Below, one piece after another: positions 47,010 to 64,000 of a stretch of DNA of 64,000 nucleotides; position 1 is the first letter of the stretch; each line of letters begins with the position of its first letter. The notes under the pieces were generated by a model, which worked only from the letters and a program-made list of their open reading frames with translations, was not told the DNA's origin and made no database searches. Both the position numbers and the translations under genes were made by a program. Origin of the DNA: Nitrospiraceae bacterium (GTDB lineage Bacteria > Nitrospirota > Nitrospiria > Nitrospirales > Nitrospiraceae); NCBI GenBank assembly GCA_050246315.1, contig JBFWWG010000001.1, positions 448,001 through 512,000 of the forward strand, written 5' to 3'.

Positions 47010-48275
47010 ATGGCCGTCGAGTCTCCCGTCAAAGCGCTCCTGTGCGGTTTCTCCAGCAACGTCGAGGCTGCCGCATATGTGATCAACCGGCTGAAGCCGG
47101 ACCTCCTCTGTTTTTTTGCTCCCGAATCCAGCAAGCCCCTTATCGAACAGCAGGTTCAGCCAAAGCTCGCGCAGATGCCCCGCCGGTGGGACATCATTGC
47201 GACCCCCGATTCGCTGGAGTTTGTCGCCTCCTACCATGCGCTCATTCGCGCCCTTCCGCCGCTGCTCCAGACCTGGGACGTCCTCCGCGGGGAATTGGTC
47301 ATTGCTTGGGCTGATGCCTCGCCGGCCATGGTCGGGGCGCTGATCCTGGCCGGGCTCGATAAAGCGTCGCGCGTCGTCCAACTGTTGGAACCGCCTGCGG
47401 CCACGGGACCGGCCGCTGACTCGCCGATTGGAACATCGGAGGAGCGATGGAAGTGGATGCAGGGAAATCCCTGGGATGAGGGCTCGGCCTGGCTGCGCAA
47501 GGAGGCGAGTGATCTGTTCAATAAAGGTTCGTACGAAGCGGCGACCTCCCTGTTCAAGCAACTCGAGCAGCGGGTGAGCGGGGGGCAGAAGCCCCTCTAT
47601 CGCGCGTTCGCCGATCTGGCCGAAGGATATGGATTGTGGCACCGGTTCCAGTACCGTCCGGCATGGGATAAATTGAAGACCTCGCACAGAGCGCTCGAGA
47701 TGGCGTCGGTTTGGGGCGGGCCCCCGGGGCTCAAGGAGCTGATCCCGGCCCTCAAGGCCAATGCGGGATTTCTCGAACGGCTGGTCCTTGATCCGCAAGA
47801 GGTGAAGGAGCAGGCGGCGCTGGATCTGCTGGCACAGGCTCGGCGTCGGGCCGAGCACCAGAGGGACATCGAGGGAGCCATGGTCGCACTAGTGCGGGCT
47901 CTGGAAGCGTTTGCACAGCGGCAACTGTTCAAGCAGTACAAGATCAAGACCTGGGATGTGCAGGCGGAACAATTGCCGGACGCGCTGCGAGAAACCTGCC
48001 GCGCCTGCTATCTTGATGACGTGGACGGCAAGTACAAGCTGCCGCTTCAAGCGCAATTCCGTGCGCTGGCCGGGTTGGGCGATCAAATGGGGCAGGCATT
48101 CCTCGCGCAGTGGCCCAAGATGAAGCCGCTGCTGGATGCGGCGAACCATGGGGTGCTGGGGCATGGATTCGAGCCGGTGAAGCCGGAGCGGTTCCACCAA
48201 CTGTACGAGATTGTCATCAAACTGGTCGATGTCCCGGACACCTCGCTGCCGAAATTTCCCGTGCTGAACGTGTGA
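47010..48275 (+). CDS. Orphan CARF + HEPN-like protein (TIGR02710-like), motifs degenerate
   Basis: Rossmann-like N-terminus (KPDLLCFF, AMVGALILAG), NPWD linker, helical middle, C-terminal NHGVLGHGF resembling RNxSxLAHG. Confidence 0.72.
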   Translation: MAVESPVKALLCGFSSNVEAAAYVINRLKPDLLCFFAPESSKPLIEQQVQPKLAQMPRRWDIIATPDSLEFVASYHALIRALPPLLQTWDVLRGELVIAWADASPAMVGALILAGLDKASRVVQLLEPPAATGPAADSPIGTSEERWKWMQGNPWDEGSAWLRKEASDLFNKGSYEAATSLFKQLEQRVSGGQKPLYRAFADLAEGYGLWHRFQYRPAWDKLKTSHRALEMASVWGGPPGLKELIPALKANAGFLERLVLDPQEVKEQAALDLLAQARRRAEHQRDIEGAMVALVRALEAFAQRQLFKQYKIKTWDVQAEQLPDALRETCRACYLDDVDGKYKLPLQAQFRALAGLGDQMGQAFLAQWPKMKPLLDAANHGVLGHGFEPVKPERFHQLYEIVIKLVDVPDTSLPKFPVLNV

Positions 48276-51604: not shown

Positions 51605-52960
51605 GTGTGTCCCGTGGCGTCTCCCATATGGATCAGGACATGGTCTGGGCCGGAATGGGGAATGGCGAGTTGTGATCCTTGCGCAGGGAACCACGAGCGT
51701 CTGGTTCGTGTCCGGAGGGGAGCGGTGACCTGCCGATTTCCCATCTCGGCTCGGTTTCTGATTCGTTCGGCCGTTCTCGGCGTAACGGTCCTGGCCGCCT
51801 GGCTATCTCTTCAGGCGGCGACGCTTCCATTTGCCTGGTTCTGGCTCAGCTGCGGGATGGCCATGCTTCTGTTCGGATTCACCGCCCGGCGGACGGCCGC
51901 CAAGGCGGTCTGGGTCAACCTCTGTGCGGCCATGGTGTCCCTCGCATTGGCCGAGGTGTATTTTTGGAACACGAAGGTGGTGAAGACCAACACCTATTGC
52001 TGCGACGACCGCTATTTCGTCCGCGACGATCTCTTAGGAGTGGTGCCTCGGAAGAGCTTCGCCGCGACCCATGTGAAGACCGCGAATGCGCTTCCCCTTT
52101 ACAAGGTCACCTACACCATTGACGCCAATAGATTGCGCATTCCGCCCCCCTACGATGAACGAAACAGCCGCGGGTCCATCCTCTTTTTCGGCTGCTCCTA
52201 CACCATGGGCGATGGAGTGGAAGATACCGAGACTCTGCCCTATCTGACCGGCCTTCTGACACAGGGCCGCTACGCCGTTTACAATTTCGGGTTTCATGGC
52301 TATAGCGCGCAACAGATGTTGGCCAACCTGGAGTCAGGGCGAGTCCAGAATATCGTGACCGTGGCGCCTCAGCACATCATCTACCAGACCATCCCGTATC
52401 ACATGGAACGGGTAGCAGGCCTCATGACCTGGTTCCCGCATGCGCCGCGATACCGTCACTCGGACGGCGGCCGCGTCGTCCCCGACGGGCACCTCGACAC
52501 GGTGGAGGACGAAACCCGCTATTCACGGATCGAGCGGTTCTGGCGGAGTCAGGGATCCATCGGGCAGGCCATCTCCACGACCATGCGAAAGTCCTACATC
52601 TACGACAAATTGGTGCCTCCATTACGAAGCCTGACCGGCGAGGACGTCCGTCTCTATCTGGACGTGGTCTCGCAGGCGCGAGCGGCGGCGGCGAGGCAAT
52701 ATCCCCAGAGCGAGTTCCATATTATTCTGTGGGACAACATGTTCGTTAAACACGATTATCTCCAATTCCTTCCTCAAGTGCTGGAAGGGTTCCGGAAGGA
52801 GCGCGTGCGGGTCCACCTCGTGTCCGAGATCATTCCGGACTATGACGCCAGTGCGCCGAATACGAAGTATGAAATCCATGCGCACGATAGCCATCCGAAT
52901 CCCTTCACGTATCGTCTCTTGGCGACCTATATCGCCAAGAACATTCTTCACGCGGATTGA
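51605..52960 (+). CDS. Membrane-anchored SGNH/GDSL-like hydrolase
   Basis: N-terminal TMs; FFGCSYTMGDGV, YNFGFHGYS, DSHPN; start uncertain. Confidence 0.78.
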   Translation: MCPVASPIWIRTWSGPEWGMASCDPCAGNHERLVRVRRGAVTCRFPISARFLIRSAVLGVTVLAAWLSLQAATLPFAWFWLSCGMAMLLFGFTARRTAAKAVWVNLCAAMVSLALAEVYFWNTKVVKTNTYCCDDRYFVRDDLLGVVPRKSFAATHVKTANALPLYKVTYTIDANRLRIPPPYDERNSRGSILFFGCSYTMGDGVEDTETLPYLTGLLTQGRYAVYNFGFHGYSAQQMLANLESGRVQNIVTVAPQHIIYQTIPYHMERVAGLMTWFPHAPRYRHSDGGRVVPDGHLDTVEDETRYSRIERFWRSQGSIGQAISTTMRKSYIYDKLVPPLRSLTGEDVRLYLDVVSQARAAAARQYPQSEFHIILWDNMFVKHDYLQFLPQVLEGFRKERVRVHLVSEIIPDYDASAPNTKYEIHAHDSHPNPFTYRLLATYIAKNILHAD

Positions 52961-53003
52961 GGCAAGGGGTGGGTCTTCAGCACCACAAAGGGGTCACACA
53001 AAG

Positions 53004-53471
53004 GGGTCAGGTCTTGCAATCATGCACGAGCTTGCTCGATCTGCTTCAGCCGGCGTGGGTCGCTAGCTTTGCGCCGACGGGGTTGAGCACCACAGATCGG
53101 CACAACTCCGACAGGTGCGCATCCTTTTCCACAAGAATGGCTCTGAATCGATCTTCAAACAGATGGCCAACCCGACCATGCCGGCGATTGAAGGCCTGAA
53201 CGTATACGCCGTTCAACTGGCGCATGCCCTGCGAGAGCGTCGGTCGTGGTATATCGACGAGCAGATGGTCGCGATTGTCCATCAGGCAGTAGGCCTGATA
53301 CAGCCGGCCATACCGGTCGATCATCTGGGCGAGGGTGGCGAGAAACCGCGCATGATCTTTGTCATCGCGCACGATCGGCTGGTGGGAGTTTCCGCGTCCA
53401 GTCAGTTGGTAGACGGCGTGGGGAAACTCCAGACGAGCGGGTGAGCAATGTATGATTGCAAGACCTGACCC
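53004..53471 (-). mobile_element. RAYT (TnpA-REP)-derived mini-element A1 with perfect 20-bp TIRs
   Basis: GGGTCAGGTCTTGCAATCAT (53004-53023) and ATGATTGCAAGACCTGACCC (53452-53471); internal ORF AYCLMDNRDHLL..FNRRHGRVGHLF..VVLNPV. Confidence 0.85.
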
Positions 53472-53496
53472 TCCATTTGCGCTCCATTTGATTTGA

Positions 53497-53543
53497 CGAA
53501 GGAGCGTCGCTTTTTGCTGTCCGAGTTGATGCTGTTGTTCGGG
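53497..53543 (-). repeat. Partial attC (R'' side only)
   Basis: GTCCGAGTTGATGCTGTTGTTCGGG just downstream of the nitroreductase gene; other arm replaced by element A1. Confidence 0.45.
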
Positions 53544-53550
53544 TTCTGAT

Positions 53551-54567
53551 TCAAACCAGCACCGACTCTACCGGACGCCGTAGTGATCTCGGCATTTCCT
53601 TTCCTCTGCCGAAGCGCACGACGAGATCGAGCCTCCGGTCACCCAACCTCAGGGCTTTGGCGAATTCGAGGCGAAGGCGGGATTCCTCGACAGGTTGGTT
53701 CACAAAAGCATTCCGGATTCCCAACGCCGTGGCTTGCAGCGCGAAGCGCTCATAACAGCGGCCTGCTTCGACCCAGTGAACCTTGTCGTTGACGTTCGAT
53801 ACGAACACGGCGATTCCCGCCGAACTGCGGATTTGGCGGGCATACTTGGCATTTTCAGGTTTCACGCGAAAAAGCGAACGGAACAGTAGCCTCCCCAGCC
53901 AGCGTGGAGTCGGAGGGCTTCCGGTCGATCGAGCCGTCAACCCATCACCGGTTCGGATCGCCTCGCCATCGCTGAAGCGAATCCAACTCTCTAACTCGCT
54001 CACAAAAGCCGGGTTGTCGATCTGCATGGTGTTGCCCTGAACCACATATTCGAGAACCTTCTCCATTGCTTCCCGCTCAGTCAGCAGGATGACCACAACG
54101 CCGTTCCCGGTTCCGGCTGTTTCGAGCAGCCGCAGTTCTTCCGTGGCCAGTGGTCTACCGTCAAAGCTGGTTCGTGTGCATTGTCGATAGGGAATTGCTT
54201 TGAACAGAGGCGATTCTTCCGCTTTCCATCGTTCCAGCATGACCGTGATTACTCCGCCGGAAGCAGGACTGAAATCCACATTCCCCATGAAGCCGGATGC
54301 CCTTGCCGCCTGGACAAGATTCTCGGCGGCGCATCCCAGCGACACGAAGAGATGATGGTCATCCGGATCGACCACCGGGGTACGTCGGGACAGATCCGGC
54401 AGGATTGCAATGGAACGATTCTCCAGCCGAAACCGCCAACATTGTGTGTTGTGCCCGGACGGGGCCAACGTGGCGTAGCGGACGATCTCTTTCATCTGCG
54501 CCGCCTCATCGGACGGCACGCCTTCCGAGTGGCGCCAGATGCTTTTCACCGCCTCAGCGTAATTCAT
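53551..54567 (-). CDS. Acg-family FMN-binding nitroreductase-like protein (cassette)
   Basis: LAPSGHNTQCW, SLGCAAENL, NQPVE, RSLRRP. Confidence 0.88.
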   Translation of the reverse strand: MNYAEAVKSIWRHSEGVPSDEAAQMKEIVRYATLAPSGHNTQCWRFRLENRSIAILPDLSRRTPVVDPDDHHLFVSLGCAAENLVQAARASGFMGNVDFSPASGGVITVMLERWKAEESPLFKAIPYRQCTRTSFDGRPLATEELRLLETAGTGNGVVVILLTEREAMEKVLEYVVQGNTMQIDNPAFVSELESWIRFSDGEAIRTGDGLTARSTGSPPTPRWLGRLLFRSLFRVKPENAKYARQIRSSAGIAVFVSNVNDKVHWVEAGRCYERFALQATALGIRNAFVNQPVEESRLRLEFAKALRLGDRRLDLVVRFGRGKEMPRSLRRPVESVLV

Positions 54568-54586
54568 CTCGCCGATTGCCTCGCAA

Positions 54587-54652
54587 CCCTAGCGCTCGAG
54601 ATCAGCCGACCCAGAACCGCGCAGGGCCGTCCGCTGCCCGCTCCTGTTGGAC
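54587..54652 (-). repeat. Degenerate attC site
   Basis: Plus strand CCCTAGC...ATCAGCCGAC...GTCCGCTG...GTTGGAC, 9 bp from the mrr stop. Confidence 0.5.
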
Positions 54653-54661
54653 GGCCCGCGG

Positions 54662-55573
54662 CTACTCCTCGCTGAAGTAGTCGGAATCAATCTTCTTCAC
54701 CTCATAGGAGCGAGCTAGGGACACGCCGACGTTGTGGTCAATCATGTGCTTTGCGAGCGCCGCGCCATCGATGAGCACGATCGTGCTGTCGATTCGAGAG
54801 GCGAACTCAATGGCGTCGGCGGAAAAGGACGACGTCGTAATGAATACTCCCTTGCGGGCCCGATGCCCCTGAAGCGCTCCAGCGAACTTCTGGATCTCGG
54901 GGCGTCCCACCGTAGAGTCCCAGCGCTTCGCCTGGATGTAAATCACATCGAGCCCCAGGCGATCCTCCTTGATGATCCCGTCGATCCCTCCGTCGCCACT
55001 CTTGCCGACAGCCTGCCCGGCGTCGCGAAGCGTTCCTCCGTAACCCATCCGAACAAGAAGCTCGACAACGAGGCGCTCGAAGAATGATGGGGATGCGCCT
55101 TTCACTTGGTCGAGGAGTTCACCTTCGAGATCGAGTCGGAGGCGGCCGTATGCCGCATCCAAGGCTTCCTCAGGTGTGGCGTCGCTAGAGACGATGATCG
55201 GTGTTGGCGCTTCATCCGGACGCTCATGTCGCAGCTCTCGGAAAGCCACGAACTCCGGAAACTGCTCCAGATACTTGACATCGACGCGCTCGGGCTTCGA
55301 CGCGAGCACGGATTGCCCGCGATCGGTGATACGGAAGTAGCCCCGGCGAACAGACTCAATCAGACCAGCCTTCTTGAGGTAAGTCCGCGCCCAACCCGCT
55401 CGGTTCCGAATCACGGTCTGCTGACCGCTGCCGAGCAACTGCTGGCGCTCCTCGGACGACAGACTGAACTCGTCGGCTAACGAGTCCACAACTTCCCCGA
55501 TGTTGTGCTCCTTGCCATCCCTGAGGAATCGAAGGAGAGGCAGCATCACCGTTTGGTAGTCGGGTATCGCCAT
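54662..55573 (-). CDS. mrr: Mrr type IV restriction endonuclease (cassette)
   Basis: MAIPDYQTVMLPLL, NRAGWARTYLKKAGL, DGGIDG, IYIQAKRW. Confidence 0.95.
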   Translation of the reverse strand: MAIPDYQTVMLPLLRFLRDGKEHNIGEVVDSLADEFSLSSEERQQLLGSGQQTVIRNRAGWARTYLKKAGLIESVRRGYFRITDRGQSVLASKPERVDVKYLEQFPEFVAFRELRHERPDEAPTPIIVSSDATPEEALDAAYGRLRLDLEGELLDQVKGASPSFFERLVVELLVRMGYGGTLRDAGQAVGKSGDGGIDGIIKEDRLGLDVIYIQAKRWDSTVGRPEIQKFAGALQGHRARKGVFITTSSFSADAIEFASRIDSTIVLIDGAALAKHMIDHNVGVSLARSYEVKKIDSDYFSEE

Positions 55574-55610
55574 TCAAGACTCTCAGCCATCCGTCTTTCG
55601 GTCCGTCCGC

Positions 55611-55649
55611 TCCCGTTCAGCGGCGCGCCGCTGAACGGGATGGTTGGGC
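55611..55649 (-). repeat. Degenerate attC collapsed to a perfect 30-bp palindrome
   Basis: TCCCGTTCAGCGGCG/CGCCGCTGAACGGGA plus GTTGGGC (55643-55649). Confidence 0.6.
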
Positions 55650-56405
55650 GTCTGGCTTCTGAAGCACCCAGATCATCACCGGACTTCGGCCTGCATCGAA
55701 CGGAGAGCGATCGTAGTTTCCATAGAGATCGAGGACATGGAATCCCGCGTCTCGCGCCATGGTCTCGAAATGATCTCTTTCGACGAACTCGAACTCCATT
55801 GGCATCAGGTGCTTCGAGCGCAGCCGCCCGTCACTATCGAAAAACTCAAAAACTTGAAGGCGCGTCACCAGAGGCCGTCCGCCCTGTTCGAAGCCGGAGA
55901 CGACGAGGCTCCCGTCCGGTGTCGCAAAGCGTCCGACGAGGCGCAGCGTTCCATCCACTTGGGCTCGGCGCACGGCGGGATTGTGCATCGTGCAGATGAA
56001 GCGGCCGCCTGGCGCCAAACATGCGAACACGGCCGAAAGTGCCTGGCGCTGACGCGGCTCGCCTATGATTTCCATGAACGATTGGAATGGCAGCAGCGCG
56101 AGCTGATAGCGTGTGTGAAGCTCGAGTTGGCAGACATCGGCACACAGTACTTCTGCGCTGAGACCACGATCCCTCAGTTTACGAGACAGAACGTCGAGCA
56201 TTCCGCGGGATCCATCGATGCAGGTCAATTGCGCTCCCGCCTGGATCAGCGCGAGTGAGAGCCGACCTGTGCCTGCGGTCAATTCCAAGATCGGCCCCTC
56301 GACCTTCGCCGTTTCCTCCAGAAAGAACGGGATGTCGTAGTCCGCGGCCACGTACAGGTCATAGATCTCCGCGACGCTGTCGTAGTCGACCGGAGTACGG
56401 CTCAT
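55617..56405 (-). CDS. Class I SAM-dependent methyltransferase (cassette)
   Basis: ILELTAGTGR, IDGSRGML, LAPGGRF. Confidence 0.9.
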   Translation of the reverse strand: MSRTPVDYDSVAEIYDLYVAADYDIPFFLEETAKVEGPILELTAGTGRLSLALIQAGAQLTCIDGSRGMLDVLSRKLRDRGLSAEVLCADVCQLELHTRYQLALLPFQSFMEIIGEPRQRQALSAVFACLAPGGRFICTMHNPAVRRAQVDGTLRLVGRFATPDGSLVVSGFEQGGRPLVTRLQVFEFFDSDGRLRSKHLMPMEFEFVERDHFETMARDAGFHVLDLYGNYDRSPFDAGRSPVMIWVLQKPDAQPSRSAARR

Positions 56406-56507
56406 AGCTGCCTCATAAGACGCCCAACGCCTGAATGAAGCCGCGCCGCGTAGCGGCGTCGGGTTGAATGAATGAACCAGAATAGTGAACCAGTACGGGT
56501 CACAGAA

Positions 56508-57158
56508 TTAGGGGGCAGAGTACTCTTGCCTGGTGGGATGTAGCTCGTTTGGTCGACCCCCTGTTTCCCCTATCAAGCTCCTTCCGACTTTCCTGCCGAT
56601 GGCCTCCCTGATACGTCTTACCTCCCACCACTCGCCCTGCTGCGTCGCTGTCCGGATGCGATCCCATTCATGGTCAGGCAATGAGTCCTCAAGCCGGCTG
56701 GCATAGGCGCTCGCTCGGGCTTGTGGGTTGTCTCCCAACGTCACGTACCAGGAGTCCTCATCAAGAAGAGGATCTGGTCGTCCCAGGGCCCGTCCGGTCA
56801 TGGTCGGCATTGAAATACCGGACATAGCGTTGCCCAACGCTCTGCATGAAACGACTCAGATCGCCTTCGTGTCCCGGTTCCATCAAGAGATGAACATGGT
56901 TGGTCATGAGCACGGATGCATGGAGCCGTACCCCGCATTGCTGTTTGGCCACGAGCAGACACTCGCCAAAGACCTGATAGGCCTTCGGAGCATGAAAGAC
57001 AGGTTGCCGATTATTGCCGCGCTGGATGACGTGATGTGGGGACGCCGGTAGGCTAAGTCGAGGCGGACGCGCCATGATTGGCAAACCCCGCACACCAGTG
57101 AGGTCGGGACCCTACGTCACGGCTGGCGGGACTGTCAATGCAATAGTTCTCTGACCCC
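56508..57158 (-). pseudogene. Second RAYT type (B), internally deleted; ORF start 57075
   Basis: MARPPRL..HHVIQRGNNRQPVF, VLMTNHVHLL, YFN...RTG then a jump to the C-terminal part. Imperfect IR GGGGCAGAGTACT / AGTTCTCTGACCCC. Confidence 0.82.
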
Positions 57159-57174
57159 TATTCCGGTTCCAATC

Positions 57175-57312
57175 TTTGTCATCGCGCACGATCCACTGGT
57201 GGGAGTCTCCGCGTCCAGTCAGATGGTGGACGGCGTGGGGAAACTCCAGACGAGTGGGCGAGCCATGCTGGAACTCGACTCCAACGCGATGTGTGACTGC
57301 AAGACCTGACCC
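57175..57312 (-). mobile_element. Truncated copy A3 of RAYT mini-element (one TIR)
   Basis: Near-identical to 59845-59982; ends TGACTGCAAGACCTGACCC. Confidence 0.8.
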
Positions 57313-57375
57313 TCAATTCCCACCATTCCTCAATTCGGTGGACCCTCCATTCGGTGAATGAATTGTTAGCCGAAC

Positions 57376-57828
57376 CTACGCTTTGACAGGGTAACGGCTG
57401 GAAATGGCGATACGGTTCCAAGTATTGATGACCACCGCAAGCCATTCGATGGCCGCGATTTCCTCTTTGGAAAGATGTGCGGAAGCTTGCTCGTAAACCG
57501 TATCTGGCAATTGACCATCTGAGATCAGCGTGATCGCCTCCACCAACTTCAGAGCGGCACGTTCTTTTTGCGTGAAGTAATCGGTCTCTCGCCATGCTGC
57601 GAGAACAGAGATGCGATCACTGCTCTCTCCACTGGCCAATGCATTCCGTGTATGCAGCCTGACGCAGAATGCACATTGGTTGATCTGAGAAGCCCGCAAG
57701 CGTAAGAGGTGAGAGAGGCCATCTGAGATACCTGCTTGGGTCGTTGCGTCAGACGCAAGCCGATCGAGTGCAACAACTGCCTGATATAGCGCAGGCGAGA
57801 ATGTTCCAAGATTGATTCTTTCAGTCAT
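57376..57828 (-). CDS. Carboxymuconolactone decarboxylase/AhpD family protein (cassette)
   Basis: LRASQINQCAFCVRLH, INTWNRI; lower GC than host genes. Confidence 0.92.
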   Translation of the reverse strand: MTERINLGTFSPALYQAVVALDRLASDATTQAGISDGLSHLLRLRASQINQCAFCVRLHTRNALASGESSDRISVLAAWRETDYFTQKERAALKLVEAITLISDGQLPDTVYEQASAHLSKEEIAAIEWLAVVINTWNRIAISSRYPVKA

Positions 57829-57847
57829 GCAGATTCCTCTGCTTGGA

Positions 57848-57980
57848 GGCTAACGCCGCCGTTCACCTGCGGCGGAGCGAGTGATCGCAGGGAGCGAGGC
57901 CGGCGTCAGGTGAACGCTAGAGCTCAGCGGCGGCAATGGAGCGCTGCGGAACTGCCGTCCGCTGCAGTGCCTTGTTCGGC
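57848..57980 (-). repeat. Two fused attC hairpins
   Basis: GGCTAAC..GTTCACCTG..CAGGTGAAC joined directly to GCTCAGCGG..CCGCTGCAGT..GTTCGGC. Confidence 0.75.
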
Positions 57981-58751
57981 TTATTTGTTTCCAACATAGA
58001 TTGATATTGGATAGGAAAAATGGATTTCGTTGCCAACCAAGTGAGCATCCATGCCCAATGAATTAGCATTGATATCGTTTTTGAATATGTCCCTTATCTT
58101 GTCATCATCCCCAGGTTTGGGAAACGATGCCTTGAGTTGCTTTTCAAGCTCCATCGGAACGGTATAGCGTCCACGCCGAAGATTGCTCAACCCGGATTGT
58201 CCAAGAAGTTGTTCCCATGACTCGTATGACAACGCTCGGGTATGAGATGGATCACGGAGCTTTTCCATGTGGTTGTAGGCCTCAGCTTTGTCGGCAGGCA
58301 ATGCTGCGTCTGCTATCAAAACAACGCCTTTCGGCTTACAGACTCTGATCATCTCCGTCAAGACCGCCTTCGGGTCGAGAAAGTGATGGAAGCTGTATCT
58401 GGTAACGACGATGGAGAATGAATCGGATGCGTAAGGCAATGGGGATGCGGTTCCGATGTCCCATGAGAGATTGGTCAAACCAAGTTCCTTTTGGCGATTC
58501 ATTGCCTGCTGGATCATCGTTTCGGTGAGATCAACTCCCGTAACATGCTGAGCCACCTTGGCAAACTCGCAAGCCACCAGCCCAGGTCCACATGCAACAT
58601 CGAGGACGAGGTCATCACCAGAAACGTTGCACATCTCGATGAGCATGTGGATTGAGTCCAAGTGCCCAGGCAACTTGGCGAAGGGAATTGCCTGCTGGGT
58701 AAATTGTTTCACAATCTCCGCGTCATGTTCCTGTTGACTTCTTGCGGTCAT
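57981..58751 (-). CDS. Class I SAM-dependent methyltransferase (cassette)
   Basis: VLDVACGPG, GVDLT, RYSFHHF, CKPKG; lower GC. Confidence 0.92.
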   Translation of the reverse strand: MTARSQQEHDAEIVKQFTQQAIPFAKLPGHLDSIHMLIEMCNVSGDDLVLDVACGPGLVACEFAKVAQHVTGVDLTETMIQQAMNRQKELGLTNLSWDIGTASPLPYASDSFSIVVTRYSFHHFLDPKAVLTEMIRVCKPKGVVLIADAALPADKAEAYNHMEKLRDPSHTRALSYESWEQLLGQSGLSNLRRGRYTVPMELEKQLKASFPKPGDDDKIRDIFKNDINANSLGMDAHLVGNEIHFSYPISIYVGNK

Positions 58752-58766
58752 TCTTTATCTCCTTCT

Positions 58767-58815
58767 GCCTAACGCGGGGCCTGAGCCGCGCCTGGAAGCG
58801 GGCCGACCGAGGAGG
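58767..58815 (-). repeat. Half attC (R' side)
   Basis: GCCTAACGCGGGGCCTGAGCCGCGCC...; complementary arm not found. Confidence 0.6.
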
Positions 58816-58862
58816 AGTCTCAGAAACGGTCATTGTTCAGAGGTTCCTTTGGCGGCGTTGTG

Positions 58863-59399
58863 TTACAAGGACTTCTTCATGCGCAAAAGCGGAACCGCGG
58901 TACCTCCGCGACCATCAATCATGTTTTCGTCAGCCACATACCCGCAAGCGCGATAGAGGGGTTCTCCGGCCAAGGTGGCGACTAATTCCATCCTGGTAAA
59001 ACCTTCTGCTTGCGCCGCCGCTTCGCAGAGCGCAATGATCAGCCGCCCCACGCCTTTGCGGGTGTGGTGGGGATGGGTATACATCGCGCGGATGCGTGCC
59101 GCGTCTTTCGTCGGGTCGAGGAGGGCCGCACTGCGTCCGAGGGTCTGATCTCCACCATACAGGGTGGCACGGCGGCTCCATCCGCCACAGCCGGCAAGTT
59201 GACCATCTACATCTACAATGAAATAGGTCTTATCATCAATCAGCTGAGTGTCCAAGCCCATAATGGCTCGACTCGAGGCAATCTGGCGTTCATCGAGAAA
59301 TGGCTTCTGCAATTCTGCGATTGCCGCGTTCATTAACAGTCTTAACGCGTTGAGGTCGTGGCGGCCGGCCAGCCTGTGGATCAATGTCGCTTGCGTCAT
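58863..59399 (-). CDS. GNAT-family N-acetyltransferase
   Basis: LAGCGGWS, RIRAMYTHP..RKGVG, LYRACGY; AAGGAGG RBS. Confidence 0.92.
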   Translation of the reverse strand: MTQATLIHRLAGRHDLNALRLLMNAAIAELQKPFLDERQIASSRAIMGLDTQLIDDKTYFIVDVDGQLAGCGGWSRRATLYGGDQTLGRSAALLDPTKDAARIRAMYTHPHHTRKGVGRLIIALCEAAAQAEGFTRMELVATLAGEPLYRACGYVADENMIDGRGGTAVPLLRMKKSL

Positions 59400-59490
59400 C
59401 ACTCCTCCTTGGGCCTGATTGAATTCAATCCTCGATGTCGGGGTCACGATTTCAGGGGTCAGATGTCAGGGTCACAGGGGTCAGATGTCA

Positions 59491-59982
59491 GGGTCAGGTC
59501 TTGCAATCATGCACGAGCTTGCTCGATCTGCTTCAGCCGGCGTGGGTCGCTAGCTTTGCACCGACGGGGTTGAGCACCACAGATCGGCACAACTCCGACA
59601 GGTGCGCATCTTTTTCCACGAGAATGGCTCTGAATCGATCTTCAAACAGATGGCCAACCCGACCATGCCGGCGATTGAAGGCCTGAACGTATACGCCGTT
59701 CAACTGGCGCATGCCCTGCGAGAGCGTCGGTCGTGGTATATCGACGAGCAGATGGTCGCGATTGTCCATCAGGCAGTAGGCCTGATACAGTCGGCCATAC
59801 CGGTCGATCATCTGAACGAGGGTGGTGAGAAACCGCGCACAATCGTTGTCATCGCGCACGAGCCACTGGTGGGCGTCTCCGCGTCCAGTCAGATGATGGA
59901 CGGCGTGGGGAAACTCCAGACGAGCGGGCGAGCCATGCCGGGACGCTACTTCAGCGCAATGTGTGATTGCAAGACCTGACCC
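59491..59982 (-). mobile_element. RAYT-derived mini-element A2 with 19-bp TIRs
   Basis: GGGTCAGGTCTTGCAATCA (59491-59509) and TGATTGCAAGACCTGACCC (59964-59982); near-identical to 53004-53471. Confidence 0.88.
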
Positions 59983-60494
59983 TTTGTCTGCTTTTCGAAC
60001 GACTCGGAAGCTGCTCGGAAGTCCAGCGCTTCCGAGTCGAGTCCGGGCATCGGCTGCTCGTCGAAGGTCTCGCTCCGCCCGAAACGGCGAAGCTCCTCGA
60101 CGAGCTCGCGATCCGCGCGGCGGTTGGTCGACCCCACGCGGACGTACACCCCGGCCTCGCGCCCCTCGCGCTTCAGGTGGTGCGGGCGCGCCGGACTCGG
60201 GTGTACCTGCACGGCGACGACCTGCGTACGCCGCCACGGGAGAATCTCGATCTCCGGCACGAGCCGCGGGGCCACGTGGTCGCTGACGAGGTTCGCCAGT
60301 CGCTCCTCCAGATCGAGCGGCTCGCGGATACCCCGCACATGGCCGGTTCTGTCTTCCACGCCCAGCAGCACGATCCCGCCGGCGGTGTTCGCTAAGGCGA
60401 CGACGGTCTTGAGCAGCCCGTCGGGGCCGGAGAGCTCGCGCTTGAACTCCAGCGTCTTGCCTTCCGGGCGCTTGAGCAGGTCGACCAAGTTCAT
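59946..60494 (-). pseudogene. AlbA_2/Schlafen-like domain protein, C-terminally truncated by element A2 (cassette)
   Basis: EGKTLEFKR, VVALANTAGG.VLLGVED, YVRVGSTNR, FDEQP; the ORF runs into the TIR. Confidence 0.82.
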
Positions 60495-60631
60495 CGCGCT
60501 AGGAAGCCTACTCGGAAGCTCCTGGGCACGTCAAGCTTCCGAGCTCAGAACCCCTCCGAGGCCGGCCGGCAAAGTACAGACGGGCGACGCGGTAACGTCC
60601 GTCCGCCCGGCACGGACCGTGGACGTGGGGC

Positions 60632-60704
60632 GTCTAACGGCTAGGTTTCAGCCACGGAGGCTCATGACCGGACCGGCCGCCGACGGCTGCAAACCCTGTT
60701 AGGC
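60632..60704 (-). repeat. Intact attC site (73 bp)
   Basis: Minus strand GCCTAAC-AGGGT-TTGCAGCC...GGCTGAA-ACCTAGCC-GTTAGAC with an extrahelical base in L''. Confidence 0.9.
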
Positions 60705-60736
60705 ACCGCGCGAATCAGTCGGTGCGCAAAGCCCAA

Positions 60737-61228
60737 CTACTTTCGGGCGCTGATGCCGTCCGCCGCGTCCATCTTTGGTTTGAGCTCGTTCAGATTCGCT
60801 CTCGCGAACGTGACATTAGCCGACGAGGCAATGATGTTTGGACCCGTCGGGGCCCCCTGCGCCACCATCAGCGCCATTCGCAGCGCCGGTACACCGACGA
60901 GGTAATCCTGTGCCGTCAGACCGTTCTCCTTGAGGATGGCCATTGCCTTTGGATCCTTCTCTACTTGCGCGCGACGTTCAGCGGGGGTCATCTTCATCGA
61001 CTTGGCCACCCGATCCTGAAAGTCCGGTAGGGACACCAGATATTTCGTCATCGCCTCCAGCGCTGAGATGAGCTGGTTGGCGCGCGGCAGCGTGAGCTTG
61101 TAGTTGAGGATTTCCTGGCGGCCGTCGGACGAATCTTTGGAGCCCTGCCCTCCAGCCACGTCGGTCGCGAGCCCAAGGGACATGACGACAAGGGACATGA
61201 CGACGAGAAGAACTACCGTGCGGAGCAT
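60737..61228 (-). CDS. Exported hypothetical protein (cassette)
   Basis: Signal peptide, AGGAGG RBS, flanked by attC sites with complementary R boxes. Confidence 0.8.
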   Translation of the reverse strand: MLRTVVLLVVMSLVVMSLGLATDVAGGQGSKDSSDGRQEILNYKLTLPRANQLISALEAMTKYLVSLPDFQDRVAKSMKMTPAERRAQVEKDPKAMAILKENGLTAQDYLVGVPALRMALMVAQGAPTGPNIIASSANVTFARANLNELKPKMDAADGISARK

Positions 61229-61323
61229 GAATCCCTCCTCTGCTTCTGGTCCTGCAATATACCGTCAACGCCGGGCGCCCGACTTCGAAGATCCGTAGCG
61301 ACGTTCCGGTTGCTCGTTCAGGT

Positions 61324-61382
61324 GCCTAACGTTGGAGCTAACCGGCCTGCCGCTGCGGGTCCGGTTGAGCGACTGGTTAGGC
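61324..61382 (-). repeat. Intact attC site (59 bp)
   Basis: Minus strand GCCTAAC-CAGTC-GCTCAACCGG...CCGGTTAGC-TCCAAC-GTTAGGC; extra C in L''. Confidence 0.92.
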
Positions 61383-61466
61383 GACCTCGTGTCACTCAGC
61401 GTTGTCTATTTCGTGACAACGCGTGCGCTCGCTGGCTGCAGGGTTGGCGAAGTTGCACAACCCATC

Positions 61467-64000
61467 TCAACCGCAACACTCGTCATCCCCCTTCATCTCG
61501 ACATCAATCGCGACTCGGCGAACACGAACACTCTTGACCTTGTCGCCGGGCAGGTCCAGACACTCGAGAAGCCGGCTGGCTCTGTCGCGGCACTGCGCCT
61601 TCTTGTCTTCAGGCGTCCGGTCGTTGAACGGCATCTCGAGGTCCGGATCGATTCGGTACGTCATGCCACCGATGACCGCGGTATCGGCGGTCGCGGTGAC
61701 GACGATGTCGCGCTCGGCTGCGGCCGCGACGTCAGCCTTCGTGAATGGCGCGCCCGCGTGGACATCAAAGGTGACGAGTCGTTGCTCGCGGGCCTTCAGG
61801 CGGGCGCCGCCTTCAGGCAAGGTCTGCAGACCGATCCGCCATCCTCGCCGCGCCAACATTGCAGGAAGAACGATAGACACCTCAATCTTCGCGGCTGTCC
61901 GACCAGGATTGCCCACCCAGAAGCCCTTGCCGTGGAGTCCCGCCATGAGACCCGCCAGTCCGCCGCCACCCGGAACGAGCGTGACATTCCGCTGACCGAC
62001 GTTGTTGTCGTTCGGCACGAGGCGCCAGTCCTCGACGACTTCGCCCGCCGTGAAGTTGTCGACGTTGCTTGGATCGCCTGTCGCCGACACGATCATCAGC
62101 ATGCAGTCATGCCCCCAGGCGTTCGTGACGGGGGTCCACTCGAACGGGCCGACGGTCTTCTCTTCGCCGTCGTTGGGCTGCAGCGTTCCGGCTGAGAGTT
62201 GGGCGGTCGTCATGGGTTGCAGGTCGTTGGGCCAGAGCACCCCTGCGGAAGGCTTGCAGTGGTAGCCCTTCACGACCACGTTGTTGGCGACGGACGTGCC
62301 ACGATTCTTGATCTTCACGTAGGCGTAGTTGGTGGCGGGGTCCCCTCCCGCATCGAGCAGCGCCGGTTCTTCGTGGCCCGCCAAGCCGTCGGGGTTACGG
62401 CGGTTCCAGATCGTCGTCGTTGCCCAATGGACCGGCAGATACTGGTACTCGCCCGCCCGGCTATCGTCGATGTAGACATCGACGCTGGGCGGTGCGCCGC
62501 CGTTGAGATTCTGTTTTTCAAATGCCCACGTGAGCACCTTGCCGTAGGCGCCTCCAAAAACCCCTTCCGAGGTCCAGTTGCCGGCGTCCGCGGTAATGAG
62601 CGCACTGAGAAAACCAGCGGCCGTCTTGGCGGTGCCGCCGACGCCCAAGCTGGCCGGGGTCATGCTGCCGACGGCTCGCAACAGCAGATAGGCCATGCAG
62701 CGCGCGGCGAATTCGCGCCGGACGACACTGTTCGAGTCGCCACCGATGGATCGGTAGGCACGGAACATCGTCGTGGAGAGAATTTGCTCGCTGAGGTAGC
62801 TGCCGAGATCGGCCGTGCCACCCCACGCCCACTTGCCGATGGTTGCCGTCCCGGAAGCGCCAGTCCCTCCGCCGCCCGTAATCGTCACCGTCGGCGCTCC
62901 GGTAAAGCCTGTGCCGTGGTAAGTGACCATCAGGAAGGTAACTGCCCCTCCGGAGACAAATGCGAGCGCTTTCGCACCCGAGCCGCCGCCTCCGCTGATG
63001 GTGACCGTGGGTGCACTTGCGTAGCCGGAGCCTCCACTCGTCAGAGTCAGGGCAATCACTCCGGAATCCGAAGGCGCCCGGTCTGATCGTCTTTCGAAGT
63101 AGGTGACGAAGGGCGCAAGGACAAAGCGGTCAATCGTGGCCGCATCGTGCCACTTGGACACGTAGTCATTGAGAATCATGGCGAAGCTGTCACCGGCGCT
63201 GTGCGCGAAACCGAAATTGGGGCCTCCGACATGGTCGTAGAGGATCCCGTGGCCGCCCAGTTCGTGAAGGACCACGCGCCAGTCTGTTGAAATGCCGATC
63301 GGGTTGGCGGTGTCGCCCTCGTCCGCAAGCGCATAGCACGTGTGATCGATGCCGTCGCCGTCGCCGATACAATGGCCATTGACGACGTTTCCAAGGGCGC
63401 GATGATCGACTTCAACCGGGAACGCCGTACCGTTGAAGTACCCCCCAGCGCCGGTCAGCGAAAACCCGAGGTCGGCCACCAGCCGAAAGAATCGGTCGGT
63501 GTGGTAATAGGCGTTGACTGCCGAAAACTGGTTGGTCCGCACATCCCAGATGTCGAAATCACTACCCGCAGGCCGTGTGGGGGCACCGACGGTCGGGGTC
63601 TCGATCTCGGTCAGGGTCGCCCAGGTGCCCTGAAGTGATTGGGTGGAGGGCGTTCCCGTGGGCGGATTCAGGTTGGCAAGCGGCTCGTTATCTCGATGCG
63701 GGTTCAGCACGGCGTTGCTTTTGTCCGCCGTATTGGTTGCCGTGCCACTGCTCGTGATCGGATCGTAGGTGAAGACCAGCCCGTTGATGCCCGAAGTGAG
63801 GGCCCGCAGATAGAGGATCGTGTTGGTCTCGACCTCAACGAGCACTCGCCAGTTCATCCGATGGCCGTTATATGGCAGGCGGAAAATGAGCTCGGCGACG
63901 AGGTACCAGCCTCCGTCGCGGATTGACTTGGGTACAGGCGGGAGCGGCAGCGTCGGCGGCGTGCCGCAGAGTGGCTGATCGACCGAATGCGGGTGGTCCT
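61467..64000 (-). CDS. Large M4/M36-like metallopeptidase (N-terminus outside window)
   Basis: Frame open to the window edge; [24 protein letters not shown]-terminal beta domain ending [10 protein letters not shown]. Confidence 0.72.

Follow-up and report, generated by a model that had tools for sequence, protein, structure and literature searches.

Genes of the TIRYT/TIRtron family are RAYT-like genes flanked by terminal inverted repeats (TIRs), whose motif is GGGGWSAS (Di Nocera et al. 2013, PMC3733652; PMC6006769), and they constitute subclass 2.1 of TnpA-REP, with helix-turn-helix (HTH) extensions (Quentin et al. 2018, PMC6006769). In a search of the literature, the name was found in these two works only. 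In the passages of PMC3733652 that deal with it, the family is a general one, with TIR repeat families in genomes, and integrons are not mentioned; the passages on the family in PMC3733652 and PMC6006769 describe no insertion event, target duplication or integron link. The locus described here, in contrast, offers a filled/empty pair, a 9-bp duplication inside an attC site and non-autonomous derivatives of the family. It lies in a stretch of 64,000 nucleotides from a Nitrospiraceae bacterium (assembly GCA_050246315.1, contig JBFWWG010000001.1, positions 448,001 to 512,000; hereafter the window), in which an 881-bp composite of two decayed TIRYT elements interrupts the attC of an integron cassette carrying a gene of the CMD family.

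Mobile DNA inside the attC sites of cassette arrays is also a feature of IS1111-attC elements, which have a DEDD transposase, and of group IIC-attC introns, which have a reverse transcriptase and ribozyme; both have a fixed entry point in attC. The TIRYT family differs from them in its enzyme, in lying mostly elsewhere in genomes and in entering attC at varying points. Its Y1 HUH chemistry on single-stranded hairpin DNA is that of the IS200/IS605 elements (IS608, ISDra2), but those elements lack TIRs, leave no duplication and insert on the 3' side of a set word of 4-5 nt, whereas here there are TIRs of 19-28 nt, an 8-9-bp duplication and variable flanks, and there is no tnpB. According to a passage of PMC7923331, one IS200/605 element, ISHahl1, is found immediately downstream of the final attC of a cluster of attC sites lacking an integron integrase (CALIN). 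RAYT/REP/REPIN systems have a related transposase and short flanking repeats that are dispersed in the genome, often as inverted doublets. Here, however, there are several paralogues per genome, not one, and 23 repeat copies, not hundreds, and the repeat is a TIR with an exact 19-mer common to several phyla, not a GTAG-tagged palindrome. In the literature, supplements aside, no published TIRYT-family insertion inside an attC with an empty-site control, no target duplication for this family and no recurrent TIR-attC arrangement across lineages was found.

The composite is inserted in a genuine attC and is flanked by a true 9-bp duplication. On the minus strand, the CMD stop codon is followed by 4 nt, the R'' box GGCTAAC, AATTCATTCA, the 881-bp insert, ATTCATTCAAC, a GC-rich stem-loop and the R' box GTTGGGC. 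The 9-mer TGAATGAAT (plus strand; ATTCATTCA on the cassette strand) is found at 56465-56473 and again, without a mismatch, at 57355-57363, just where the original prediction, made from the letters of the sequence, had placed it; at 2,000,000 random genome positions, a 9-mer recurring 890 bp away was seen 9 times. When 881 bp and one copy of the 9-mer are removed by coordinates, a site of 60 nt results. This rejoined site matches the uninterrupted attC that follows a CMD homologue in Tepidimonas (L169:1958-2017) at 57/60 positions, all but 19, 31 and 45, and the attCs of two further loci (L143 and L140) at 55/60. An uninterrupted attC of this 60-nt type, with ATTCATTCA present once and directly past the stop codon, is found in 4 of the 41 CMD-homologue loci read: L140 and L169 (both Tepidimonas), L143 (Noviherbaspirillum) and L145. 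These are the empty-site alleles for which a search had been suggested, and since they carry ATTCATTCA only once, the 9-bp duplication is real. The boxes of the interrupted site fit the attC consensus (RYYYAAC for R'' and GTTRRRY for R'). The complementarity of its R'' to the R' GTTAGCC at 57848-57854 holds, as claimed, at all seven positions, and its own R' (GTTGGGC, 56428-56422) is a 7/7 complement of the R'' of the next cassette (GCCCAAC, 55649-55643).

Based on an attC covariance model (R1) built from 17 sites, the interrupted site as it stands scores 21.1 bits, against 46.0, 47.8 and 58.7 bits for the three intact attCs of the window. The model rests on the third of three alignments (A3), the first two, made with MAFFT (A1 and A2 of that series), having put L'' out of register; it is used in place of a heuristic finder relying on boxes and a constrained fold, most of whose 79 hits were false positives. 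With a sequence profile of 17 attCs, the rejoined site scores 41.9 bits over its full length, a value flattered by the inclusion of close relatives of the interrupted attC among the seeds, of which those of the same type score 44-48. Only 3 of 300 shuffles are reported at all by the profile, the best with 1.1 bits, and the proposal that excision restores a 60-bp attC is thereby upheld. By reading of the sequence, L'' and L' pair at 6/6 positions in the empty alleles (ATT[C]AAG with CTTAAT), whereas substitutions at positions 19 (L'') and 45 (L') leave a pairing of 4/6 in the window copy, as would be expected of a site no longer under selection. The unconstrained fold gives the central stem only. 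The attC that follows qacF on class-1-integron plasmids agrees with the L169 allele at 58/58 positions, and matches to this attC type are present in more than 5000 plasmid records.

The insert contains a type-A 5' piece (144 bp, 57170-57313), which is 91% identical to the stretch 59840-59983 of another type-A copy in the array (A2), and a type-B element of 660 bp. The two larger type-A copies, A1 and A2, are about 470-490 bp long from TIR to TIR and carry the TIR (G)GGGTCAGGTCTTGCAATCA at both ends; their gene is degenerate and truncated, stopping after about 140 codons, and its HUH motif is changed to NRDH. In type B, the TIRYT gene is split into two frames (56761-57093 and 56508-56837) that are too short for the region of the catalytic tyrosine. 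It matches Y1_Tnp (2.6e-9) and the NCBIfam model REP_Tyr_transpos (37 bits, 2.8e-9), and its TIRs, GGGGTCAGAG and GGGGGCAGAG, pair at 22 of 28 positions. An intact catalytic tyrosine is absent from both copies in the insert, and the C-terminal HTH is lacking or lost in the A and B remnants, which are thus not active genes. These matches agree with the claim that the insert holds two RAYT-type remnants and, on sequence features, place both in the known TIRYT/TIRtron family of RAYT relatives as non-autonomous members.

The family features are clearest in the four intact paralogues of this genome. They are 306-328 aa long, two of them lying at C4:264697-265620 and C1:568960-569934, and have a Y1_Tnp domain (45-52 bits) and a C-terminal HTH domain (Bac_DnaA_C, HTH_23 or HTH_28); one of them, at C1:569k, scores 86.8 bits with REP_Tyr_transpos, for which the cut-off is 80. 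Their ends carry related repeats, and the TIRs begin GGGGTCAG, which fits the published consensus GGGGWSAS. As in the described family, a Y1 HUH N-terminal domain is combined with a C-terminal HTH (Bac_DnaA_C or HTH_23-like), GGGGWSAS inverted repeats surround the gene, and small TIR repeat families occur as singles and dimers. An intact TIRYT gene has its 3' end, TIR included, twice in tandem at C1:568864-568954, and after each copy comes GTGAATGAAT, with a (GAAT)n run at its end.

The CMD-cassette attC is not the only one in the array at which a type-A copy is found. The half-attC at 53495-53543, the 3' half of which is absent, follows the attC of the nitroreductase homologues up to ...CTCCTTCGTC and then breaks into type A. 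Of the nitroreductase-cassette homologue loci listed, 5/15 clearly go on from ...CTCCTTCGTC with GCTCTGC...GGTTATGCTGAACGTT, at the point where the window has the flank of A1. This is a second attC, unrelated to that of the CMD cassette. A2 replaces the end of the AlbA_2 cassette together with the attC of that cassette and the R' before the GNAT gene, and no attC or R' is left between A2 and the GNAT gene. Both arrangements had been foreseen, one as a RAYT copy abutting a half-attC and the other as a copy at 59982 truncating a cassette gene, as was the lack of copies in the first 53 kb: positions 1-52900 hold no TIR with up to 3 mismatches.

In the whole genome, the covariance model finds 12 attCs at E < 1e-3, in six regions, among 150 prefiltered candidates scored. 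Within 2 kb of these attCs, which amounts to 0.83% of the genome, lie 4 of the 25 TIR or TIRYT loci (binomial probability 5e-5), and TIR loci are still enriched near attC when the three sites of this array are counted as one event (p = 0.015). A locus at C5:134117, with AATTCATTCA followed by GGGGCAG, was considered as a second insertion at the same attC position and rejected, the sister genome having the same sequence with one change. At this site, a type-A-like element belongs to a 514-nt segment standing in place of an unrelated 370 nt, and no duplication is present.

The sister genome (G001) is a metagenome-assembled genome of a Nitrospiraceae bacterium and is 96-98% identical to the present one (G000) in syntenic blocks. 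Both the array and type A are absent from it. Its copy of B is 96.7% identical over 661 nt and equally broken, and its location at a different locus supports mobility in trans. The distance to the R' end of an attC upstream of it is 28 nt; this attC, one of just two detected in that genome, is of the same 60-nt type. This B copy is inside a 1.8-kb block (L198:9873-11697, on G001:C3) that is absent from the orthologous site in G000 (C6:109655-109671). In the block are a GNAT-like open reading frame (ORF), an attC of the 60-nt type, B and another attC-like site, of 12.6 bits. The 8-bp repeat GTGCGCAT marks the limits of the block on both sides, and its weak inverted ends contain TAAGGTTG. It seems that this attC-bearing block moved outside an integron. 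The B-type TIR pattern matches six genome loci, L194 being the sole true B copy. At 9 of the 11 TIR loci examined in G001 the orthologous TIR is present in G000, and these gave no fresh filled/empty pair. Two other short repeat families, of about 210 and 140 bp (L184:495-710 and L180:1405-1542), are present in the sister genome, each in more than 20 copies with 72-94% identity.

The TIR itself is widespread. With up to 3 mismatches, it occurs 23 times on 11 contigs of this genome, many copies being single, and the reversed pattern occurs once. Its exact 19-mer is found at at least 134 public loci, which among the matches listed belong to Nitrospirota, Rokubacteria, Beta-, Gamma- and Deltaproteobacteria, Acidobacteriota, Actinomycetota, Elusimicrobia and Omnitrophota, and at which TIRs are found on either side of TIRYT genes, as short inverted doublets or singly. 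The sharing of an exact 19-mer across phyla argues for horizontal spread, and since the TIR is spread both genome-wide and across phyla, it is not an attC-specific signal. In front of most TIR copies stands a tandem series of two or three units, each made up of a short flank word peculiar to that copy and the six bases with which the TIR starts, in the pattern X-GGGTCA-X-GGGTCAGG... (for example C6:90211-90289, C2:276937-277015, C16:18964-19042 and window 59443-59509), and in many inverted doublets the flanks lengthen the inverted repeat by 3-9 copy-specific bases. We know of no mechanism that explains either the tandem flank words or the extended inverted flanks.

An attC accepted by the model is present in the 300-600-nt flanks of 6 of the 134 listed public TIR loci (L045, L055, L095, L111, L112 and L128; L095 and L128 were seeds of the model). 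The TIRs of L045, L095, L111 and L112 are directed towards R'', from which 8-9 nt separate them. When up to 2 mismatches are allowed, the Methylococcaceae genome from which L111 and L112 come (G002) has 6 TIR copies (control, 0), and for 4 of them an attC is no more than 130 nt away. In three, the TIR is separated from R'' by 8 nt, and one of the three is flanked by the 8-bp repeat AGCCTAAC, which is the R'' box; the fourth belongs, as 5' TIR, to a TIRYT gene whose start lies 123 nt past an attC. On contig C25 of G002 (L296:8657-8782 and L296:9917-10040), two cassettes 1.26 kb apart have different genes and an identical unit consisting of CATCAAAG, the TIR, cgcacccg and the attC, so that the TIR is now part of the attC repeat of the array. 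In a metagenome contig (L221, identical with L227), a mini TIR doublet ends 8 nt before ATTCATTCAAGCCGAC of an attC of the 60-nt type, and R'' is missing; of the 37 metagenome matches to this pattern, 25 have an intact R'', as by chance, and among the 12 without R'' only L221/L227 is informative. Entry into attC is therefore variable, as the known points are the spacer and L'', the central loop, R'', 8 nt upstream of R'' and 28 nt downstream of R'. The attC is a preference and not a site specificity like that of IS1111-attC. The original prediction of an attC-associated class of HUH elements stands in so far as the association with arrays exceeds chance and recurs in several genomes; it does not stand as a class of its own, the elements being known TIRYT/TIRtrons with a TIR that is found genome-wide and entry points that vary. 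Of what was to refute that prediction, TIR copies throughout the genome are indeed found, but a lack of enrichment near attC is not.

Short direct repeats are also in modest excess round other copies of the family. Direct repeats of at least 8 bp are present in the 60-nt flanks of 9/42 TIR doublets, compared with 10/161 local controls (p about 0.001), and the 8-bp repeat in G002 is a further case. A test of 14-nt flanks, in which 1 of 43 doublets had a repeat, was too narrow, as the duplication in the window is 37-42 nt out, and was replaced by the 60-nt test.

The account favoured here, to which belief and doubt are given in about equal measure, is that a decayed TIRtron composite was mobilised in trans into an attC, and that cassette arrays are a preferred but not exclusive landing ground of such elements. 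The non-autonomous 881-bp composite was inserted in the 60-nt attC of the CMD cassette at the boundary of the unpaired spacer and the L'' box, with a duplication of the 9 bp ATTCATTCA. Neither remnant can encode a transposase, and the activity would have been supplied in trans by one of the four intact TIRYT paralogues. With R'' separated from L''-L'-R', the folded bottom-strand substrate of IntI could presumably no longer form; the attC would be disabled and the CMD cassette locked to its downstream neighbour. Sites of this kind may be favoured because they often extrude single-stranded hairpins with unpaired bubbles, the kind of DNA on which Y1 HUH enzymes act, and insertions there would cost the host little. 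TIRs landing beside an unbroken attC would then travel with the cassette. What the analysis shows is the insertion and its duplication, the family of the inserted DNA, the decay of both copies and an enrichment near attC; which enzyme acted, why attC is preferred and in which order A and B were joined is what we infer.

Several observations weigh against this account. Between the duplication and the TIR cores are 42 nt on one side and 37 nt on the other, and a single clean event is thus not demonstrated. No repeat of at least 8 bp is found at 33/42 TIR doublets, and there is no duplication at B in G001, at A1, at A2 or at the C5 copy. To our knowledge, the characterised Y1 HUH transposases of IS200/IS605 make no target duplication. 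No attC lies within about 5 kb of any of the four intact TIRYT genes, nor of the three TIRs on contig C12, the fragment at C6:90271 or the pseudogene at C1:651k; 16 of the 23 TIR copies of the genome are outside arrays. The type-A copies may stem from one arrival followed by local spread or recombination, and the TIR-attC units of Methylococcaceae and Methylobacter, which share one attC type, may descend from few events, so that the number of independent events would be smaller than it appears. The passages on TIRYTs in PMC3733652 and PMC6006769 show no activity of any of them.

It is accordingly necessary to consider whether attC is a target at all. The arrays might be tolerant dumping grounds, in which any inserted mobile DNA survives and one type-A arrival has spread locally by recombination or short-range hopping. 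Such an absence of targeting is unlikely, but several points speak for it: the three type-A copies (A1, A2 and the fragment) are 91-97% identical and all lie within one 7-kb stretch, an IS3-family fragment is also present in the integron, the enrichment falls to the p value of 0.015 given above once the array is counted as a single event, two other arrays of this genome, on C8 and C2, are without a TIR, and an IS200/605 element beside a CALIN is recorded as an observation in the passage of PMC7923331. Tolerance, however, leaves unexplained the constant spacing of 8-9 nt from TIR to R'' that three lineages share (L045, L095 and G002), the insertion at the same attC position in the unrelated metagenome contig L221, and the location of B beside one of only two attCs detected in G001. 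If the position is chosen, the choice could instead fall on a sequence word and not on the attC structure, namely on ATTC/GAAT-rich words such as ATTCATTCA, the spacer plus L'' of the common 60-nt attC. This word is found 33 times in the genome where about 10 are expected from composition, is the site of the L221 insertion, abuts a B-like TIR remnant at C5:134117, and adjoins, in tandem, each of the two 3' TIRs of the intact TIRYT at C1:568864-568954, with no attC within 5 kb. It is absent, on the other hand, from the A1 junction, which is in the central loop of another attC type, from the R'' junction in G002 (AGCCTAAC) and from the B site in G001; the word at C5 is conserved in G001 and is no fresh junction, and the flanks of most TIR copies are unrelated to ATTCATTCA. 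Word recognition is given little credence.

Two other explanations concern the enzyme. The TIRYT remnants may have been passive, with the 9-bp duplication made by a DDE transposase acting on the ends, or by repair or template switching at a fork stalled at the attC hairpin. Duplications of 8-9 bp are typical of DDE enzymes and are not known for Y1 HUH enzymes such as those of IS200/IS605; the outer ends of the composite are poor inverted repeats (115/1000 shuffles score as high, which is not significant); the flanks are full of micro-duplications and inverted target copies; and the 1.8-kb block of G001, which carries two attC-like sites as well as B, lies between copies of an 8-bp repeat and has ends that are not those of a TIRtron. 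This explanation is nevertheless improbable, since it is TIRYT genes that the TIRs flank, in this genome and across phyla, no DDE gene accompanies the TIRs in the loci examined, and the excess of 8-10-bp repeats round TIR doublets points to a mechanism of the family's own. A dedicated class of attC-targeting HUH elements, comparable to IS1111-attC or the group IIC-attC introns, would account for an attC association that recurs in at least five lineages, with several junctions inside or at the edge of an attC. It is the claim of a class that we find very hard to credit, since 128/134 listed public loci, with no attC in their 300-600-nt flanks, and all intact genes here are away from attC, the entry points within attC differ, and the relevant passages of PMC3733652 already describe the family as a general one, with TIR repeats, without reference to integrons.

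Beyond trans-mobilisation of one composite, there is a wider reading, which is doubtful but may be stated. TIRYT/TIRtrons would be cross-phylum Y1 HUH transposons that make 8-9-bp duplications by a route unlike that of any characterised Y1 enzyme, and attCs would be to them both a favoured place to land and a means of transport. TIRs lodged 8 nt upstream of R'' would move with the cassettes, and TIR-attC units would be re-used on different genes of an array, as may have happened in G002 (C25:138665 and C25:139925). Blocks that bear attCs together with such elements would be moved outside integrons and may seed attC clusters there, for which the 1.8-kb block of G001 can be compared.

The array itself is the distal part of a chromosomal integron, with its cassettes on the minus strand. 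The cassette genes between 53.5 and 61.3 kb, all on that strand, encode nitroreductase-like, Mrr, CMD, GNAT and AlbA_2 products, two methyltransferases and one unknown protein, and the CMD gene has 41 related public loci with identities of up to 80%. The integron integrase is just outside the window (C1:515185-516420, minus strand; TIGR02249, 462 bits against a cut-off of 265). A further attC (C1:512691-512754) lies between the window and the integrase, and the IS3-family fragment lies between that attC and the integrase. The R''/R' box pairs chain correctly along the cassettes of the array, including the 163-aa cassette (GTTAGGC at 61330-61324 with GCCTAAC at 60704-60698). The coordinates of the features are collected in Table 1.

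Table 1. Elements, attC parts and cassette features at the interrupted site and in the surrounding array (window coordinates)
Feature	Position	Strand	Evidence or remark
Type-A copy A1, TIR to TIR, at the distal array end	53004..53471	-	Y1_Tnp 2.1e-5
5' half of nitroreductase-cassette attC (R'' CCCGAAC, L'' CATCAAC)	53495..53543	-	Cut in its central part by A1 and a 23-nt flank
Remainder of CMD-cassette attC: end of L'', central stem-loop, L', spacer, R' GTTGGGC (56428-56422)	56422..56464	-	21.1 bits as it stands
Duplication copy 2	56465..56473	-	Sequence
Flank of B right end, 29 nt: partial terminus duplications (GAACCAGAATAG / GAACCAGTAC-GGGTCA)	56474..56502	+	Sequence
Type-B element, 660 bp	56503..57162	-	TIRs 57158-57139 and 56511-56530
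Type-A fragment: 5' leader and first ~30 codons of degenerate TIRYT gene	57170..57293	-	Sequence comparison
5' TIR of type-A fragment	57294..57312	-	1 mismatch to GGGTCAGGTCTTGCAATCA
42-nt run of short degenerate repeats, partial TIR starts (CCGAATGGA-GGGTCC ...)	57313..57354	-	Flank kind found at most TIR copies
Duplication copy 1 (ATTCATTCA on cassette strand; spacer and first 5 nt of L'')	57355..57363	-	Single in empty alleles L140, L143, L169
R'' box GGCTAAC of CMD-cassette attC, 4 nt past CMD stop	57365..57371	-	7/7 complement of R' GTTAGCC 57854-57848
CMD-family gene of interrupted cassette	57376..57828	-	PF02627, 1.6e-16; stop codon 57376-57378
Intact attC, methyltransferase cassette upstream of CMD	57909..57980	-	46.0 bits, covariance model R1
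Type-A copy A2	59491..59982	-	AlbA_2 cassette ORF runs into its TIR
Intact attC	60632..60704	-	47.8 bits, covariance model R1
Intact attC	61324..61382	-	58.7 bits, covariance model R1

Some further features of the array and its surroundings may be noted. The integrase gene (L135:3185-4420) has the same direction of transcription as the cassettes and is not divergent from them, and the IS3-family transposase between integrase and array is partial (C1:514184-514969, L135:2184-2969). The attC of the first methyltransferase cassette (55611-55649) consists of R'' GCCCAAC and a perfect 15+15 palindrome, and GTT is missing at the expected R'; the Mrr unit that follows thus departs from the canonical cassette. 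The CMD cassette is separated from the attC at 57909-57980 (R' GTTCACC) by a 60-nt unit without an ORF (57848-57915), which ends with GGTGAAC, 6 nt and GTTAGCC and resembles a cassette reduced to an attC stump. An Rfam scan of 52500-62000 gave nothing relevant. Elsewhere in the window, a Csm6-like protein with HEPN and 6H domains (47010-48275) adjoins a ResIII/DEAD helicase, with no other CRISPR-associated match among the 19 proteins scanned.

In the relevant passages of PMC3733652 and PMC6006769, RAYT/TIRYT transposition is not demonstrated. The presence here of filled and empty alleles that differ by a clean 9-bp duplication, together with the modest excess of 8-10-bp repeats, predicts staggered cuts or gap repair, which runs counter to peel-and-paste transposition in the style of IS608. 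For integrons, the attC type that was struck is the common 60-nt type of class-1 integron cassettes. If attC sites are indeed favoured, these elements would be a source, not listed until now, of the fixation of cassettes and of the decay and rearrangement of arrays, and they could be hitch-hikers on the traffic of cassettes between phyla.

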